The translations under genes were made by a program, and so were the position numbers. The notes under the pieces are model-generated. The model was not told the DNA's origin. It was given only the letters and a program-made list of their open reading frames with translations, and searched no databases. A DNA stretch of 64,000 nt from an uncultured Parachlamydiaceae bacterium (GTDB lineage: Bacteria; Chlamydiota; Chlamydiia; Chlamydiales; Parachlamydiaceae), in assembly GCA_963742415.1 (NCBI GenBank), contig CAVULX010000003.1, positions 768,001 to 832,000 of the forward strand. The letters run 5' to 3'. Shown piece by piece: positions 22,188 to 46,599 of the stretch. Every line of letters begins with the position of its first letter. Position 1 is the stretch's first letter.

Positions 22188-22964
22188 TCATTGAGGAAAA
22201 ACGGCTGTTGTCTTAGGTATTACCGTAGGCTCTGTCGACAACGGAGTAGGGTTATATAATGGGGTAGGGGTATATACTGCCGTTGGCAATTCACCTTCCC
22301 CTTTTGTTATCTTTATCCCAATGATTTTCCAAGACCCTTCGGCTTTAGTTAAAAAGTAATCGACTTTAAGTTCACGGTTGTCTGTTGAAGTTAAAATCCC
22401 CTCTAAAGAAGCAATATTGTTTTTGAATTCTAACCCTGCAAACATGGCATTTTTATTTTTAAGAAACACAGGATAGCTGGTGATAAAAAAAATAAAATTG
22501 TCTAGAGAAGTTTTTTCACGGAATTGTTCTGCAGTATAAGCATTGTAAGCTCTGGCGTATTCTTCATGTTGGACGGCGTTCAATTGGTTTTCAATGACAG
22601 AGAGGATTTCTTGGGCATCTTGCCTGGTCAACCGGTCGCACGCTTCTAATGTGGGGGAGGTGACCCCTGGAGCTGAAGAAGCGGGAGCAGAAGAAGCGGG
22701 AGCAGAAGGAGCGGGAGCAGAAGGAGCAGGAGTAGAAGGGGCAGGTGCCGGTGTGGTTTTCTTGGGTCGGGATAATAGAGGTTGAACTGACTTTGGTGTT
22801 GGGTAAGGCGTATTTGTTGTCGACGGTGTAGAAGGGGGAGGCATAGGTGATATTGCTCCTCCCCCGCCGTCGTAGGCCCAAATCGACATGGGAAGGTAAA
22901 CATACGCAAGAAAACTAGTTAAACCTAAACGGCTTTTTGTTGTTAAAAATTTTTCAAGATTCAT
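22188..22964 (-). CDS. Exported DUF4864-like (NTF2-like) protein with a Pro/Ser/Ala linker
   Basis: IENQLNA...AYNAYT.EQFREKTSLDNF...YP...VDYFLTK..GSWKI. Confidence 0.7.
   Translation of the reverse strand: MNLEKFLTTKSRLGLTSFLAYVYLPMSIWAYDGGGGAISPMPPPSTPSTTNTPYPTPKSVQPLLSRPKKTTPAPAPSTPAPSAPAPSAPASSAPASSAPGVTSPTLEACDRLTRQDAQEILSVIENQLNAVQHEEYARAYNAYTAEQFREKTSLDNFIFFITSYPVFLKNKNAMFAGLEFKNNIASLEGILTSTDNRELKVDYFLTKAEGSWKIIGIKITKGEGELPTAVYTPTPLYNPTPLSTEPTVIPKTTAVFPQ
22672..22746. repeat. 15-nt tandem repeat, about 5 copies, encoding APSAP/APASS
   Basis: Unit approximately GCAGAAGAAGCGGGA. Confidence 0.85.
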
Positions 22965-40300: not shown

Positions 40301-40750
40301 ATGGCTACTATTGACAAATTAGATTTAAGTGTCTACAACCTTTATGCCATTCGCACCAAAATGATCGAACAGATCGAGGAGCAGATCCCGATTGCCAAGG
40401 CGGGAACCATCCCTCCTCATACGACGATTTTTGGGACTTTCCAACAGTTGACTGAAATCGATATCCTCCTTGGCGTTGTTCCATTGTTTACCCCTTGGGC
40501 TTATTTTTACCCCCCAAAAAATTTTCGTAACCAAAGGCGTTCATCTTTTGCTTTTTATAGGGTCGCACCTTCTCTGGGATCCTTCAAAGAACAAGAAGAG
40601 GAAGAAGCGCGTTTAGCTGCCATCCCATGTGCAAACCCCCAAGAAGAAGCACAAAAAGCATCCCTAACCTCTTGTTTCAAAATGATCAGTAAGCTGAATG
40701 GATGGCTCAGTTTCATTGTTGGACGCGTCGGCCAGTTCCTACAAGGGTAA
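40301..40750 (+). CDS. Conserved chlamydial hypothetical protein (CT273-like position)
   Basis: GAGGTG RBS before ATG 40301; divergent from rsmH and followed by a TPR gene, as recalled for chlamydial synteny. Confidence 0.7.
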   Translation: MATIDKLDLSVYNLYAIRTKMIEQIEEQIPIAKAGTIPPHTTIFGTFQQLTEIDILLGVVPLFTPWAYFYPPKNFRNQRRSSFAFYRVAPSLGSFKEQEEEEARLAAIPCANPQEEAQKASLTSCFKMISKLNGWLSFIVGRVGQFLQG

Positions 40751-40757
40751 TCTGTAG

Positions 40758-41153
40758 ATGAGTACAAAAAATTGGCTTCAGGAATTGGGATGGAATGAAG
40801 AGCAGGTTGAAGATCTCCGTTTCACAGGGTTTGCTTACATTCGACAAGGTAAGTACGATATAGCTTTGCCTTTCTTCGAAGCCCTTGTCGTCTTAGAGCC
40901 TGAAAGCTCTTACGACGCCCAAACTTTGGGCGCCCTTTATCTCCAACTTAACAATCCTGTAAAGGCTTTAAAGGCCATCGATAAAGCTCTTAAATTGGAC
41001 GCCGATCATGCACCTACCCTCCTCAATTTGACGAAAGCCCTCCTTATGTTGGGGCGGACGGACGATGCTTTAAAACTCGCCAATATCCTTAAAAATGAAC
41101 AAGATCCGATGATTTCCAATATCGCTAAAGCCCTGATTTTAGCTTGGAGTTAA
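40758..41153 (+). CDS. TPR protein, T3S class II chaperone-like (CT274-like)
   Basis: YIRQGKYDIALPFFEAL...QTLGALYLQ...TLLNLTKALL. Confidence 0.8.
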   Translation: MSTKNWLQELGWNEEQVEDLRFTGFAYIRQGKYDIALPFFEALVVLEPESSYDAQTLGALYLQLNNPVKALKAIDKALKLDADHAPTLLNLTKALLMLGRTDDALKLANILKNEQDPMISNIAKALILAWS

Positions 41154-41173: not shown

Positions 41174-41222
41174 AGAAAGCCAAAAACCACAGCGATTGCG
41201 TCTCTGTGGTTTTTGGCTTTCT
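41174..41222. terminator. Bidirectional terminator hairpin between convergent genes
   Basis: Perfect 19-bp stem AGAAAGCCAAAAACCACAG / CTGTGGTTTTTGGCTTTCT. Confidence 0.85.
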
Positions 41223-41251: not shown

Positions 41252-42007
41252 TCATTCTCGATTGGCTGCAGAACGCTTGTCTTTCATCTTTTGGTAAACA
41301 AGACGAACAGCTAAGTTTTTATCTGATAAAGCGCATTTTCCTCGCCCTTTACAGGCGCTTTGGCCAGCACAGTTATTGTTACTGCTTCGGCAGGCATTTA
41401 AATGGGAACAGACATTCGTCGCAGCACAACGGGTACTCGCCACCTGTAAAGCTAAAGCTTTACCTGCGGGTGAAAGGCTTTCATAGAGTTTGATTCCATC
41501 TTTGTTGAGTTCTAGCTTGAGCTCTTCTTCCGACATCAAATGATAACCTAAATTACCATCGTTAGGATCACTGTTGGAGTCAGAATTGTTTGAATTGCCG
41601 CCAGAATTTTTATCAAGATTTTTAATTGGCAACTTGGTTTGGGTAGGGTCCCGATCGGCGATGCTGCCGCATCCATGGCTGCAACTGTGATCCCATGCTG
41701 GGGCGTTGCGATCGGCGATGCTGCCGCATCCATGGCTGCAACTGTGATCCCACGAAGGGGCGCCACGGTTGCCTAGGCTGCCGCACCCATGGCTGCAACT
41801 GTGATCCCAGGAAGGGTTGCTTGAGTCTGCTAAGCCTGGACATCCATTTTTCCCTTTGCATGCATGCTTTGTCGCTGCCGCAAGCATTTGACCTGACACC
41901 GGATTATCGCTGCTTTCATCGGCAAATGCCGCACCGGTTTGACTTGATATAAACAGTCCGCTCGCCATTCCCATTAAGGCTAAATTTTTCAAATCCCGTT
42001 TTTTCAT
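41252..42007 (-). CDS. Exported Cys-rich repeat protein B (3x PxWDHSCSHGCGS; C-terminal BufA2-like six-Cys domain); candidate RiPP or metal-binding precursor
   Basis: AAGGAG RBS, signal peptide ending AAFA, 14 Cys; paralogue of 42088..43125. Confidence 0.75.
   Translation of the reverse strand: MKKRDLKNLALMGMASGLFISSQTGAAFADESSDNPVSGQMLAAATKHACKGKNGCPGLADSSNPSWDHSCSHGCGSLGNRGAPSWDHSCSHGCGSIADRNAPAWDHSCSHGCGSIADRDPTQTKLPIKNLDKNSGGNSNNSDSNSDPNDGNLGYHLMSEEELKLELNKDGIKLYESLSPAGKALALQVASTRCAATNVCSHLNACRSSNNNCAGQSACKGRGKCALSDKNLAVRLVYQKMKDKRSAANRE
41652..41816. repeat. 57-nt coding tandem repeat, 3 copies
   Basis: Units start at 41652, 41709 and 41766; shared core CCATGGCTGCAACTGTGATCCCA. Confidence 0.95.
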
Positions 42008-42037
42008 TGAAGTAACTCCTTGTGTTGCAGGGGACTA

Positions 42038-42074
42038 TTCCATGAGAACCGGCCCTAAAGCCGGTTCCATGGAA
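42038..42074. other. Intergenic hairpin between the two Cys-rich paralogues
   Basis: TTCCATG-a-GAACCGGC-cctaaa-GCCGGTTC-CATGGAA; no U-tract on the coding (-) strand. Confidence 0.75.
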
Positions 42075-42087
42075 ATTTTAGTTTTGA

Positions 42088-43125
42088 TTACTTTGTATTC
42101 ATCATGGCACGCTTATCAGCCATTTTTTTAGCTGCTACTTTCACAGCTAAATTTTTGTCTTTAAAAGCGCATTTGCTTTGTCCAGCGCATCCAGCCATTC
42201 CAGCGCAGGAATTTTTATCTGTCCTGCAAGAATTTAATCCTTTGCAATCATTTTTTCCTTTGCAGGAGGAGCTAGCAAGTTTAAGAGCTAAAGCTTGGCC
42301 TTCTGGACTCAATTTGTTGAAGGCGTCTTTTCCTTCGTCATTGAGTTGATCCACCAATTGATCTTTGGTCAATTGAGTAGATTGGCCGCTTTTTGCTTCC
42401 CCGTTGGTTTGCGCGGTGAAAGTACGGCTTCTATAGGACCTATAGCTGTTGGGATTGTCACTTCCTGGGGTTTGGTTTGGTTTTCCTGTCCCTGTGCCTG
42501 TGCCGCTAGAGGAGTTGTCGTCATCGTTTTGTGCTGTCAATGAATTACGGCGGTTATTGTAGCTTGTTGGGCTGTTGCTTTGAGGTTGAGATTGATTGTC
42601 TGGCATCATCTTTTGAGGCATTGGAGGATATGTCTGAGGCTTGTTCCCTTCACCTGTTTGGGGAGGTTGAGGTTGATAGCCATTGTATCCTTGCTGGCGG
42701 GGATAATTACCGGAACCCATGCTGTTGCAGCCTTGGCTGCCAGAGTAATAGCCGCCGGAACCCATGCTGCTGCAGCTGTGGCCGCCGGAGTAATAGCCGC
42801 CGGAACCCATGCTGCTGCAGCTTTGGCCGCCAGAGTAATAACCGCCAGAACCCATGCTGCTGCAGCTATGGCTGCCAGAGTAATAGCCGCCGGAACCCAT
42901 GCTGCTGCAGCCTTGAGTACTTCCGGAATAATATCCACCATCATAGTATCCGCCACCGCCAGAAGATTGCCCGTGGCACCCATGCATCCCTCCACAACTT
43001 CCCCCAGCAAGCAATTGCTCAGTAACTAGCCCTTCGGTTTGCTCAGCTTGCAATGCTCCTTGTGTCATTAGTATGCCCCCGGTAATCCCCAGAAGGGCCA
43101 ACTTTTTCATATCTTTCTTTTTCAT
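42088..43125 (-). CDS. Exported Cys-rich repeat protein A (5x GGYYSGxxxCSSMGS; C-terminal BufA2-like six-Cys domain); candidate RiPP or metal-binding precursor
   Basis: GAGGAG RBS, signal peptide ending ALQA, 13 Cys. Confidence 0.75.
   Translation of the reverse strand: MKKKDMKKLALLGITGGILMTQGALQAEQTEGLVTEQLLAGGSCGGMHGCHGQSSGGGGYYDGGYYSGSTQGCSSMGSGGYYSGSHSCSSMGSGGYYSGGQSCSSMGSGGYYSGGHSCSSMGSGGYYSGSQGCNSMGSGNYPRQQGYNGYQPQPPQTGEGNKPQTYPPMPQKMMPDNQSQPQSNSPTSYNNRRNSLTAQNDDDNSSSGTGTGTGKPNQTPGSDNPNSYRSYRSRTFTAQTNGEAKSGQSTQLTKDQLVDQLNDEGKDAFNKLSPEGQALALKLASSSCKGKNDCKGLNSCRTDKNSCAGMAGCAGQSKCAFKDKNLAVKVAAKKMADKRAMMNTK
42711..42939. repeat. 45-nt coding tandem repeat, 5 copies
   Basis: C(G/A)GAACCCATGCTG recurs at 42711, 42756, 42801, 42846 and 42891. 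Confidence 0.95.
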
Positions 43126-43346
43126 AAACGAACTCCTCTTTAGTTATTTTGCTATTCAAAAAAAAATCACATGCAAGGATATAAAAAAATATCTATCATT
43201 ATTTGTAGTCTAAAGCAAGAAATTTTTGAAAAAATGATCTATGAGAATCTTTTTGCGTCTTCTCCTAAATTTTAAGTTTTATGAATACTTGGTAATTCGT
43301 TAAAATATGAAGAACATTGAAAATTTGTTAAATTATTAGAGGAAAA

Positions 43347-45866
43347 GTGAACCAATACTTAACTTATATAGGAATTTTCTTAGCGTTTGTAACTTTTCAG
43401 ATGAAAAGCAATGCAAACGAAGACTTTACTTCAATGCTTAAAGTAAGACAGCCCAATTGGCAGATGGAAATAGTGGATTTTTATTCTAATGGCGCACCCA
43501 AACAAGTCATTTTCTTTGAACCTCTTCCTGAAAAAGCAGCCGGGTCTCCCGTCAAAAGCTTAGCATTCACTTTACAAGGCCACCTCCTCTCTGAAACAGA
43601 TTTAACGGCCGCCTCGGATCCCTCCCATCCTATTCCCCATGGATCCAGTGTCACTTTCAACCTCAATGGAGAAATAGAAAAAGTTGAATCCTACCGCGAA
43701 GGGATTTTAGAAGGACTTGCAAAGGCCTATTATTTGACAGGAGTTTTGAAGGAATCAAGCCTTTATCATAAAGGAAAATTAGAGGGTCTGGTGGAATCCT
43801 TTTATGAAAACGGTAAACTCAAAGAAAAAAGGAATTACGTAGAAGGAAAAAAGCAAGGGCCTTCCGAATATTTTTATGAAAATGGAACAATGTCAGCATC
43901 TTATAACTTCGAAAACGGACTCTTAGAAGGGGAATCGAAAGAATGGGACGAAAATGGTGCCATCAAAGCGGTTTCCTATTATCAGCATGGGCTGCTTAAC
44001 GGTGATCACACACACCCCGCCCAGACGCTTTACTATCCCGATAAGACCATTGCTGAACAGCAAGATTTCCGACAAGGGATCCCTATTGGGAAGCATGAAC
44101 GCTTTTACCCCAATGGAAATCCCCGCTATTATGCTTTTTATCTCCTAGGGAAAAAAGAGGGACGCGAGCAAGAACTTTTTGAAGATGGGACTGTGGGTTT
44201 GGAAGGCACTTATCACCAAGGCCTGCCGATCAATCACCATACAAAAAAGGATCCCAATGGAAAGCTGTCTTTTGCCGCACACTATGACCATGAAGGCAAT
44301 CTCATAGAACCTATTAAGGAATATGATGAAGAGGGGCATCTCGTATTGCAATATGAGATGAAAGAGGGAAAATATCATGGAGCCTTTTACGAATGGTATC
44401 CCTCAGGCGAAAAAAAACGGCAATATTATTATCTTCTGGGAGAATGGGATGGGGAGCAGCGGGAGTATTATCCATCCGGTCAATTAAAGACTTCCGCTTT
44501 CTACAGCCAAGGATATAAACAGGGCGATTACGCTGAGTGGCATAAAGGGGGCGGGCAAGCCTTAAAAGCAACCTTCAAAAAAGGGAAAAAAGAAGGGCCT
44601 ATACTTTCTTGGCACCCCAACGGCACTAAAGCTTCCGAAGCTTTTTTTGTAAGAGGAAAAGAGGAAGGTGCATGGAAGGAGTGGGATGCCAACGGTCAGC
44701 TTATCCTGTCCGCAGAGTATAACAAAGGGCGGAGGCACGGACGGGTTCAAATTTGGAATTCAAAAGGGGCTTTACTCTTTGAAGCGAATTTCATTCAAGG
44801 GCAACCCGTGGGAGTGGTAAAAGAATGGGGTGAAAATGGTTCTTTAAAAAGGGAAGCAACCTACAAAGAAGGTCTATTGGAAGGGAAGGAGAAATTATTC
44901 CATGTCAATGGCAAACCAACTTTGGAAGCCGACTACCTCAAAGGATTGCGTCATGGGGATTATTTGACCTGGTACGAAGATGGAACGCCTTACCAGATAC
45001 GTCGTTATGATCACGGGACTTGCTTAGGGGAGCAAAAAGAATTTTATCCCTTGGCTCAAGAGGGGGGATCGCAGCACCTTGCAAAAAATCTTTTTTATAA
45101 AGATGGAAAGCTCCACGGGGAACAAAAAACCTATTTCCCCGATGGGACAGTCAAAGTGCTTATGAATTATGACAACGGCTTATTAGATGGCAGAAAAGCT
45201 ATTTGGGATGAGAAAAATAAATTGAAAGAGGAAGCCTTTTATAAAAAGGGAAAACTCGATGGCAAATACTTTGCTAGAAAAGAAAATGGGAGCGAAGTGA
45301 TTTACCATTACAAAGATAATCTCCTTCACGGCTTGCACCAAGTATTTTTCCCTCCCCATCCCACGTTGGGAAAAATCAAAGCCCTTGAAGCCTATTTTGA
45401 AAATGGATTGCTTGAGAAGGAGGCTATCGAATTCAACCCATCAGGAATAAAAATAGGGAGTTCTTTTTACCACAAAGGGCTTAAAGAAGGAATTACAGCG
45501 GTCTTTAATGAAGAAGGGCGGATCCTTCTTCAAATCGAATTTGCTGATGGAAAACAGTCGGGCATGAGTTATGAATATTTTCCTAATGGAAAGATCCATA
45601 AGACGGCGACGTTTGTTCATGGATTAAAAGAAGGGGAAGAGAAGGTCTATCATGAAAATGGACAGCTTGCATCCCAAAGATCCTACAGCAAGGGGCTTCA
45701 GCATGGATTGTCTCAAGAATGGAATACATTCGGCATTTTAGTATTTGAAGGCTCCTACGATGAAGGAAAGAGGCACGGTAAATTTAATAAATACGATGAT
45801 CAAGGGCGCCCCTTGGTTTTGCAGATATTTGATCATGATAAATTAATTGAAAAAAACAAAAATTAA
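43347..45866 (+). CDS. Exported MORN-variant repeat protein (YwqK-like)
   Basis: Dozens of Y.NG.L.....Y..G...G units; N-terminal signal-like segment. Confidence 0.88.
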   Translation: MNQYLTYIGIFLAFVTFQMKSNANEDFTSMLKVRQPNWQMEIVDFYSNGAPKQVIFFEPLPEKAAGSPVKSLAFTLQGHLLSETDLTAASDPSHPIPHGSSVTFNLNGEIEKVESYREGILEGLAKAYYLTGVLKESSLYHKGKLEGLVESFYENGKLKEKRNYVEGKKQGPSEYFYENGTMSASYNFENGLLEGESKEWDENGAIKAVSYYQHGLLNGDHTHPAQTLYYPDKTIAEQQDFRQGIPIGKHERFYPNGNPRYYAFYLLGKKEGREQELFEDGTVGLEGTYHQGLPINHHTKKDPNGKLSFAAHYDHEGNLIEPIKEYDEEGHLVLQYEMKEGKYHGAFYEWYPSGEKKRQYYYLLGEWDGEQREYYPSGQLKTSAFYSQGYKQGDYAEWHKGGGQALKATFKKGKKEGPILSWHPNGTKASEAFFVRGKEEGAWKEWDANGQLILSAEYNKGRRHGRVQIWNSKGALLFEANFIQGQPVGVVKEWGENGSLKREATYKEGLLEGKEKLFHVNGKPTLEADYLKGLRHGDYLTWYEDGTPYQIRRYDHGTCLGEQKEFYPLAQEGGSQHLAKNLFYKDGKLHGEQKTYFPDGTVKVLMNYDNGLLDGRKAIWDEKNKLKEEAFYKKGKLDGKYFARKENGSEVIYHYKDNLLHGLHQVFFPPHPTLGKIKALEAYFENGLLEKEAIEFNPSGIKIGSSFYHKGLKEGITAVFNEEGRILLQIEFADGKQSGMSYEYFPNGKIHKTATFVHGLKEGEEKVYHENGQLASQRSYSKGLQHGLSQEWNTFGILVFEGSYDEGKRHGKFNKYDDQGRPLVLQIFDHDKLIEKNKN

Positions 45867-45893
45867 CCTATGAATTCGGGTTATGAGCCAATA

Positions 45894-46166
45894 ATGAAAT
45901 GCTGGAAATGTGGAGCAGAGATTTCTAATAAATCAGATCGGATCTCTTTTCGTGAACTATGCGATCAATGCCAAGCCTGGCTGCATTGTTGTAAGAATTG
46001 CCGCCGCTATAAACCCGGGGCCGCCAACGATTGTGCGATCCCCGGTACGGAATATGTGGCCGACAGGGAAGCCGGCAACTTTTGCGAAGATTTCAAAATT
46101 CTTGGCGAAGGTCCTAAAAAAACATTAGATCCCAAAGATATCGCTAAACGTCTGTTTAAAGACTAG
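45894..46166 (+). CDS. Small Cys-rich (9 Cys) putative metal-binding protein
   Basis: CWKC..CDQC..HCCKNC..C..NFC; start could be 45870. Confidence 0.75.
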   Translation: MKCWKCGAEISNKSDRISFRELCDQCQAWLHCCKNCRRYKPGAANDCAIPGTEYVADREAGNFCEDFKILGEGPKKTLDPKDIAKRLFKD

Positions 46167-46179
46167 GTTAGCGCATAGA

Positions 46180-46599
46180 TTATCGCCAATACCCCTCTGT
46201 CCAAACCCAATGGTGATGATGGCTTGTCCAACAGCCAGACACCCAAATAGCGGTAGCATGAGGCCTTACACCCCAATGGCCATGGACCCGCACCCAGTGG
46301 AACCCATCCCATCTCCAATGCCCTTTAATCCACACATAATTGGCTCCGGGGCATACGCCCATCTCTTCCTCAAAATCAGCAGGAGGTTCGCTTTCCACAG
46401 TGACATAAGCTGCAGGAGCTTGGGGTTGGACAACCACCGTTGGGGCTGGCTGCACGACTACAGTCTGAGCTGGAGGCTGAACGATGACAGTGGATGCCGG
46501 CTGTTCAACAATATAAGTCTTGTGGGAATGGGCCTGGGCCTGTTGAATAGAAAACGCACATGGGGCTAGTAACAATAAGAAAAGTGGCATTTTTTTCAT
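46180..46599 (-). CDS. Exported YXWGXW/WXXGXW-repeat protein
   Basis: Signal peptide, VVVQP repeats, WIKGHW/WVSGCW/WTEGYW and a His run. Confidence 0.85.
   Translation of the reverse strand: MKKMPLFLLLLAPCAFSIQQAQAHSHKTYIVEQPASTVIVQPPAQTVVVQPAPTVVVQPQAPAAYVTVESEPPADFEEEMGVCPGANYVWIKGHWRWDGFHWVRVHGHWGVRPHATAIWVSGCWTSHHHHWVWTEGYWR

Follow-up and report, generated by a model that had tools for sequence, protein, structure and literature searches.

Within a 64,000-nucleotide window of an uncultured Parachlamydiaceae genome (assembly GCA_963742415.1, contig CAVULX010000003.1, positions 768,001 to 832,000), two adjacent minus-strand genes, here called A and B, encode Cys-rich, exported-looking proteins that are very likely substrates of an MNIO enzyme. 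The reading we favor as probable is that A and B are bufferin-2-related precursors, modified in trans by an unlinked BufB–BufC enzyme pair, exported by Sec, and acting as multi-site periplasmic copper binders made in advance for the elementary body (EB); within this reading, the copper function and what becomes of the variable cores are less certain. New here are the split operon, the hypervariability of the cores, an enriched [ITVL]A[DEQ] motif and late-stage expression. A literature search, outside which most subscription papers lay, found no published description of the chlamydial precursor family.

The first-pass annotation of this DNA had described two co-oriented paralogs with a common leader and tail around unrelated Cys arrays, and comparison of the two genes bears this out. 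A (345 residues, 13 Cys) and B (251 residues, 14 Cys) each follow a GGAG ribosome site; their tails are 45.7% identical over 92 residues (E 3e-25) and their leaders 38% identical over 58 residues (E ~1e-6), and between the common leader and an 88-residue tail the middles hold mutually unrelated Cys repeats. The five and three repeat units counted earlier also stand, A carrying a first unit of 16 residues followed by four of 15, and B three units of 19. In the DNA these form tandem arrays at 42710-42915 (period 45, 4.6 copies, 90%, score 342) and 41652-41816 (period 57, 2.9 copies, 87%, score 239), the two top scores of the 43 tandem-repeat rows in the window. By sequence, both N-termini have 4-5 K/R within the first 9 residues and their most hydrophobic 12-mer at residues 9-20, and the B leader ends in AFA. 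In a six-frame search of the genome (2.69 Mb, four contigs, 84% complete), hidden Markov models (HMMs) of the leader, the helical part and the Cys cassette matched A and B alone, the next best match having E >= 0.18. Ala-rich or Cys-rich plus-strand open reading frames (ORFs) over the repeats were rejected as shadows, homologs, ribosome sites and family matches all lying in minus-strand frames only.

Searches with the tail of A gathered 68 proteins of 189-378 residues, the query counted, and searches with the tail of B gathered 11. Median identity, taken over 400 random pairs drawn from the 61 proteins (of 68) with a located leader, is 65% in a leader stretch of 17 residues and 58% in the tail, and falls to 20% in the middles, where shuffled sequences give 18%; the expected pattern of varying cores between fixed flanks is thus seen across homologs. 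Middles of 69 proteins hold 0-12 Cys each (416 in total) and have a G+S content of 27%. The residue before a middle Cys is G, S or K in 390 of 416 cases and the residue after it G, S, N or A in 364, so the cores diverge in sequence yet keep a small-residue Cys context. The first Cys stands 1-5 residues after [LIVM]A in 59 of 68 homologs. Inspection of these sequences by eye also yielded a short motif, [ITVL]A[DEQ]; the middles contain 65 copies of it, where 200 shuffles gave a mean of 10.6 and at most 19. Of the 68 proteins, 46 carry the motif, with the last copy a median of 55 residues ahead of the tail cassette. B has it at the end of the first core and of two of the three repeats, and in A its two copies both lie past the repeats. 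It may be a processing or recognition site. No full-length relatives outside Chlamydiota were seen among at least 62 loci, and the named non-chlamydial loci match the Cys cassette only. Within the phylum, some homologs carry KCGAGKC repeats (P0044), and five members from one family (L007, L008 and L010-L012, family f3) have a lipobox-like LxGGC past a hydrophobic stretch and are probably membrane-anchored variants; bufferin 2 precursors reach 367 residues and about 16% are lipoproteins, according to parts of PMC12452194.

The tail is more than the flank it had been taken for: it holds a BufA2-like Cys cassette of its own. The tails of A and B match NF050166 (BufA2) with E 1e-8 and 2e-7 over profile positions 27-69 of 79 only, nine homologs score 28-40 bits against the same profile, and the first five tail Cys are in register with those of two above-cut-off BufA2 proteins. 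The earlier six-Cys description fits A and B themselves and fails for the family at large, in which the sixth Cys is present in 30 of 69 members and absent in 39. A structural model of the tail (predicted local distance difference test, pLDDT, 70.8; predicted template modeling score 0.61) has three helices, a Cys loop at pLDDT 49-63, a long last helix and no strands. Bufferins are marked by a small core fold containing beta-sheet, a comparison limited by the low confidence of the modeled Cys loop. The helices may clamp the Cys loop and thereby replace the CysI-CysVI disulfide of bufferin 2. Foldseek returned no match to this model at E <= 0.001 and a wider fold search gave a best Z of 3.7, results that are uninformative on fold novelty, and the best feature score in a protein atlas, 0.79, serves as a lead only. 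The helical module is retained where the Cys cassette has been lost (pc1864 and L031) and also occurs as a stand-alone repeat protein. In chlamydial family f10, the gene immediately ahead of bufB encodes a Cys-poor protein of ~265 residues in which the module recurs as 4-5 weak tandem copies (L013:699-1487, plus strand; L145:2343-3146, minus; L015:632-1456, plus). When six proteins were tested against the tail HMM, whole-protein E values ran from 1e-7 to 3e-5; the f10 protein may have an accessory or anchoring function.

The genome encodes one MNIO (PF05114; G000:C2:232695-233465), which scores 320.2 against the NF050167 (BufB) cut-off of 310, and directly downstream of it a DUF2063 protein (PF09836; BufC) at 49.9 against 27.2 bits, the pair lying on contig C2 between a PseC-like aminotransferase gene and rsmB. 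Among the maturase types proposed for a genome search by the first-pass annotation, DUF692 and DUF2063 were recovered, the two DoxX genes present are unlinked, and YcaO was not found in the 84% complete genome. Neither another family member nor a DUF2282 precursor was found in the same genome, and no precursor-like ORF was found beside bufB–bufC on C2. Chlamydial BufB has a mean column identity of 74% in 36 of 68 collected sequences, and D253 is invariant in all 36 together with nine putative metal-ligand positions. At residue 254, which follows the proposed catalytic Asp, 31 of the 36 have Asp. Asp at this specificity position is the state of enzymes of the Cys-Lys (BufA2) group, and residues flanking the Cys govern MNIO turnover, as described in passages of bioRxiv 2025.11.18.689057.

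Co-occurrence of precursor and maturase, also proposed earlier, extends across the phylum. In 401 chlamydial genomes searched for MNIO, 400 of them scored with the precursor profile, an MNIO is present in 139 and a precursor match in 115. With the reservation that related genomes are not independent, an MNIO is found in 107 of the 115 genomes with a family match at E <= 1e-3 and in 79 of the 80 with one at E < 1e-14 (the exception has its pair at a contig end), and 253 of 400 genomes have neither. The family to which this genome belongs, which includes Protochlamydia, Neochlamydia and Rubidus, has both in 44 of 45 genomes. Both are missing from families f4 (genomes of 1.0-1.3 Mb, taken as Chlamydiaceae), f8 and f30, where 0 of 29, 0 of 35 and 0 of 17 scored genomes hold a precursor. 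Among the matches listed that reach profile position 223 or beyond, taken with MNIO places down to E 1.9e-92, 67 of 76 genomes have a precursor on the bufB strand and no more than 1.5 kb upstream of that gene, the gap having a median of 97 nt; the precursor is not adjacent in eight, several at contig edges, and one genome has no MNIO. The common order is an A-type or tail-less gene, a B-type gene, bufB, bufC and often rsmB, with a divergent MORN-repeat gene upstream. No precursor-like ORF was seen in four of the 27 loci examined (L140, L156, L157 and L030, the last overlapping L157).

Several loci depart from this plan. In Waddlia the gene before bufB encodes 64-70 residues with 2 Cys; no paper was found for the Waddlia locus tags, which have no row in the PMC6090853 supplements. 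At a second locus of genome G156 (L045:621-1914, minus strand), a bufC-like gene comes after a precursor, bufB being absent from the space between. Canonical systems also occur in some chlamydiae, with two above-cut-off BufA2 genes in G360 (L006:2302-2852, minus) and an EGKCG-type precursor in G104 (L149:2142-2573, minus). A 75-residue precursor with 11 Cys and no signal peptide, possibly of a cytoplasmic type, stands directly before bufB at L141:3562-3789 (plus), and in L140 a different 341-residue gene is ahead of the 75-residue, 11-Cys precursor. At L076:7234-9978 (plus), three collagen-like, Cys-bearing genes with GPT repeats and a beta-barrel-like gene lie between the precursors and bufB.

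Published data place counterparts of the system in the chlamydial developmental cycle. In Protochlamydia, pc1865 is DUF692 and pc1866 is DUF2063 (parts of PMC5451489), and by position we matched pc1862-pc1864 to the three genes upstream of bufB. Data Set S1 of PMC5451489 assigns pc1862-pc1864 to the late II class, as it does omcA and omcB, and places pc1863 and pc1864 in the EB proteome; pc1864 rises from ~8.4 to 10.7 and 11.4 log2 reads per kilobase per million (log2RPKM) and the MNIO gene pc1865 from ~5.9 to 8.1 and 8.4. The bufferins of Caulobacter vibrioides bind copper or protect from it and slow killing by amoebae (bioRxiv 2024.03.18.585515), and a role for copper in amoebal phagosomes is taken from PMC11197307; our literature search found no copper data on chlamydial members.

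In the mechanism we propose, A and B would be co-transcribed, and BufBC would oxidize precursor Cys to thiooxazole rings in the cytoplasm, in trans, before predicted Sec export of the modified chains. A cut at [ITVL]A[DEQ] could then free cores from tail, and the chains would capture copper in the periplasm, preloaded into elementary bodies that face the outside and amoebal phagosomes; repeat expansion would give more binding rings per chain. Modification of the tail cassette by BufBC is strongly suggested, and modification of the small-residue-flanked Cys in the variable cores more weakly so. A bolder version, which we consider unlikely and entertain tentatively, is a developmentally programmed, open-substrate MNIO system in which one enzyme pair would heterocyclize any small-residue-flanked Cys behind the leader, and a cut at [ITVL]A[DEQ] would yield lineage-specific thiooxazole peptides and a helix-clamped bufferin domain, loaded into the elementary body as a modified layer beside OmcA and OmcB. 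If true, this would amount to a multi-core, protease-processed class of captophorins and a second, non-disulfide Cys chemistry of the infectious form.

The expression data can also be taken to mean that A and B are MNIO-modified or disulfide-linked building blocks of the EB periplasm or envelope, with the helical module serving assembly or anchoring, the low-complexity middles forming a matrix and metal binding secondary. The shared temporal class with omcA and omcB and the EB proteome speak for this account, as do the persistence of the helical module without the cassette, its weak tandem copies in the Cys-poor proteins before bufB, the long Cys-poor middles rich in S, G, Q, N and Y, and the listing of pc1862-pc1864 in part of PMC2811131 as predicted integral outer-membrane proteins without orthologs. 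Yet neither A nor B matches an OmcA or OmcB family, the precursors were not found in f4, f8 and f30, all presumably elementary-body builders, and the linkage to a BufB-type enzyme is tight, the relatives characterized in passages of bioRxiv 2025.11.18.689057 all making copper-associated products. We judge this account improbable, and the alternative of a simply unmodified envelope protein is weakened likewise.

The genome also departs from the single operon by which bufferin systems are defined: the window retains the MORN-repeat gene, A and B, and the remainder of the operon is on C2, both loci being contig-internal. Genome G319, from another genus, shows the split too, its two loci lying 218 kb from each other on a single contig with the same new neighbors on both sides, and an assembly artifact was ruled out as the cause of the split by this single-contig arrangement and the contig-internal loci. 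Maturation in trans is likely because a second genus has the same split. The repeats of G319 differ from those here, both tails are identical at 66 of 88 positions, and the proportions of synonymous and nonsynonymous differences between tails (pS 0.68-0.73, pN 0.16-0.20) indicate that the tails are under purifying selection in the split genomes. These observations bear on the possibility that A and B are orphans left by the break, unmodified and at most plain disulfide or thiol proteins. Their separation from bufB–bufC would fit, as would the departure of the B tail from consensus at two usually conserved Gly positions; set against this are the low pN, the split shared with G319, an intact bufB–bufC for which the genome yielded no further family member and no DUF2282 precursor, and the sizeable share of bufferin precursors that section 14 of PMC12452194 describes as unlinked from MNIO genes, and we regard orphan status as very unlikely. 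Just as unlikely are A and B to be copper chaperones or stores that feed a heme-copper oxidase induced late in development: a COX1-family gene is present in 132 of the 139 MNIO-positive genomes and late II genes are enriched for electron transport (parts of PMC5451489), but 7 MNIO genomes lack a COX1 match, 163 genomes have COX1 without MNIO (including 29 of 35 in f8, where no MNIO was found), the loci examined showed no oxidase gene next to the operon, and the co-occurrence pattern gives no support.

The bufferin-2-related reading has its own difficulties. A and B score well under the BufA2 cut-off (34.9 and 31.4 against 60 bits), and in place of the canonical C-x5-C-x5-C-x6-C-x5-C-x12-C arrangement their sixth tail Cys stands at x5. 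Since both the score and the Cys arrangement place them outside BufA2, we file A and B, which would work like bufferin 2, as a chlamydial variant. The repeats of A lack the [ITVL]A[DEQ] motif, as do 22 of the 68 homologs altogether. The Asp254 signature suits a Cys-Lys tail and not obviously G/S-C-G/S cores, which leaves core modification less certain. Many genes before chlamydial bufB are Cys-poor and would make poor copper sponges: the Protochlamydia trio have a leader, 1-4 Cys and no cassette, and one locus has a 286-residue, leader-bearing, Cys-less gene in this place. The expression data accordingly describe cassette-less counterparts, not A or B, and in parts of PMC5451489 pc1866 (bufC) is early I and pc1865 is without a class. 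An MNIO is present without a family match in 32 of 139 genomes. In the 84% complete genome no CsoR-family regulator was found and a copper-type P-ATPase above cut-off provides another copper defense, and the pattern upstream of the precursors resembles a housekeeping promoter. Of 12 upstream regions, 10 contain this pattern, a TTGCA-N17-TG-extended arrangement, where shuffles average 0.15, a control that overstates the excess, the pattern having been drawn by eye from the same sequences. A generic scan for promoters and terminators yielded nothing beyond the shuffled level and did not pick up either hairpin listed in Table 1.

Table 1. Features of the two precursor genes and their flanks, in window coordinates
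Feature	Position	Strand	Basis
Precursor gene A, 345 aa, A-type tail	42088..43125	-	ORF and profile matches
Precursor gene B, 251 aa, B-type tail with NxGYH; type usually directly before bufB in relatives	41252..42007	-	
A conserved signal-peptide-like leader, residues 1-27	43045..43125	-	putative cleavage site placed by eye
A first core: xLA then C-x4-GC	42970..43014	-	
A five GGYYSG..CSSMGS repeats, one Cys per unit	42712..42939	-	
A first [ITVL]A[DEQ] copy (SLTAQND); putative recognition or processing site	42529..42537	-	
A second [ITVL]A[DEQ] copy (TFTAQTN), immediately ahead of tail; putative site	42409..42417	-	
A tail domain: three helices, Cys loop, C-terminal helix	42109..42372	-	model
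A BufA2-like Cys cassette C-x5-C-x5-C-x6-C-x5-C-x5-C	42169..42264	-	
Intergenic hairpin A/B, -27 kcal/mol, z -5.25; then GGAG ribosome site of B	42038..42074	-	
B signal-peptide-like leader, residues 1-29, ends AFA	41921..42007	-	
B first core with CKGKNGC, then LAD motif	41834..41887	-	
B array of three PxWDHSCSHGCGS units with two Cys apiece; IAD motif closes the second and third	41648..41815	-	
B tail domain (Cys cassette 41333-41428)	41273..41536	-	
Candidate major-sigma promoter upstream of A: TTGCTT, 17 nt, TG-extended TAGATA	43190..43218	-	
Long hairpin after B, probable bidirectional terminator common to B and convergent TPR gene, z -6.4 and -7.3	41174..41222	.	

Around the precursors, an 839-residue MORN_2-repeat protein (43347-45866, plus strand) is divergent from A and is a conserved operon neighbor in several families, with a small Cys-rich gene (45870-46166) next after it both in this window and in relatives. 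Beyond these, 46180-46599 (minus) encodes an exported-looking protein of 139 residues that has a His-rich end, contains WXXGXW repeats (PF12779, above cut-off) and is weakly like the contact-dependent inhibition lipoprotein BcpO. On the other side, a DUF5399 gene and a TPR gene like the type III secretion chaperone SctY (below cut-off) lie at 40301-41153 (plus), convergent with B; the pair also flanks the B counterpart in G319. Elsewhere in the window, 22669-22739 holds a 15-nt tandem repeat (4.7 copies, 92%).

The family supplies likely substrates for chlamydial MNIO enzymes left without a recognized precursor by an earlier survey, in supplementary file 2 of which all eight Parachlamydiales rows are zero for three precursor models and five of the eight have MNIO and DUF2063 (PMC12452194); the main text of that paper makes no mention of chlamydiae, nor do the passages of bioRxiv 2025.11.18.689057, whose Datasets S1 and S2 might list some of the proteins. 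It also recasts pc1862-pc1864, from species-specific outer-membrane proteins to members of a phylum-wide operon, and makes it possible to ask whether chlamydiae that infect amoebae equip the infectious stage against copper in advance and why the system is missing from several chlamydial families. The pairing of a conserved enzyme with cores at shuffle-level identity should make a good tool for MNIO substrate rules.

Multi-core precursors of peptides made by ribosomes and modified after translation (RiPPs), such as the cyanobactin precursor PatE, combine fixed flanks, hypervariable cores and a short recurring motif by the cores. The chlamydial family shares this architecture, with its motif next to cores; unlike PatE, the motif is not beside every core, core length is not fixed, cleavage is putative, no dedicated protease was seen in the loci examined and YcaO is missing from the genome as sequenced. 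With OmcA and OmcB, A and B share Cys richness, predicted export and, through the Protochlamydia counterparts, the late II class, but they differ in having no match to those families in Pfam or NCBIfam at E <= 1, in the tie to an MNIO operon and in their absence from several chlamydial families searched. The oxazolins and fontiphorins (HvfA and FonA; EGKCG Lys-Cys captophorins) are likewise exported low-complexity chains with many single-Cys repeat units as MNIO targets, putatively so here, whereas A and B have no EGKCG repeat and no NF050137 or NF050188 match (the L149 control protein did match NF050137), their repeat unit is not fixed across the family, and the BufB-type enzyme carries Asp rather than Phe at its specificity site. 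The closest likeness is to bufferin 2 (BufA2-BufB2-BufC2; Buf_6/12Cys; Cys-Lys group of captophorins) of C. vibrioides, with which the chlamydial system shares an above-cut-off BufB-type MNIO and its DUF2063 partner, a signal-peptide-like N-terminus, the spacing of the first five Cys, Asp at the specificity position and, in relatives, lipoprotein-type variants and tandem precursors. In contrast to bufferin 2 with its 61-residue core, the chlamydial precursors of 251 and 345 residues place a hypervariable Cys-repeat region ahead of the cassette, set the cassette between helices without the sixth Cys at the canonical x12 spacing, the partner in the CysI-CysVI disulfide, have their enzymes unlinked in this genome and, in the Protochlamydia counterparts, follow the developmental cycle.

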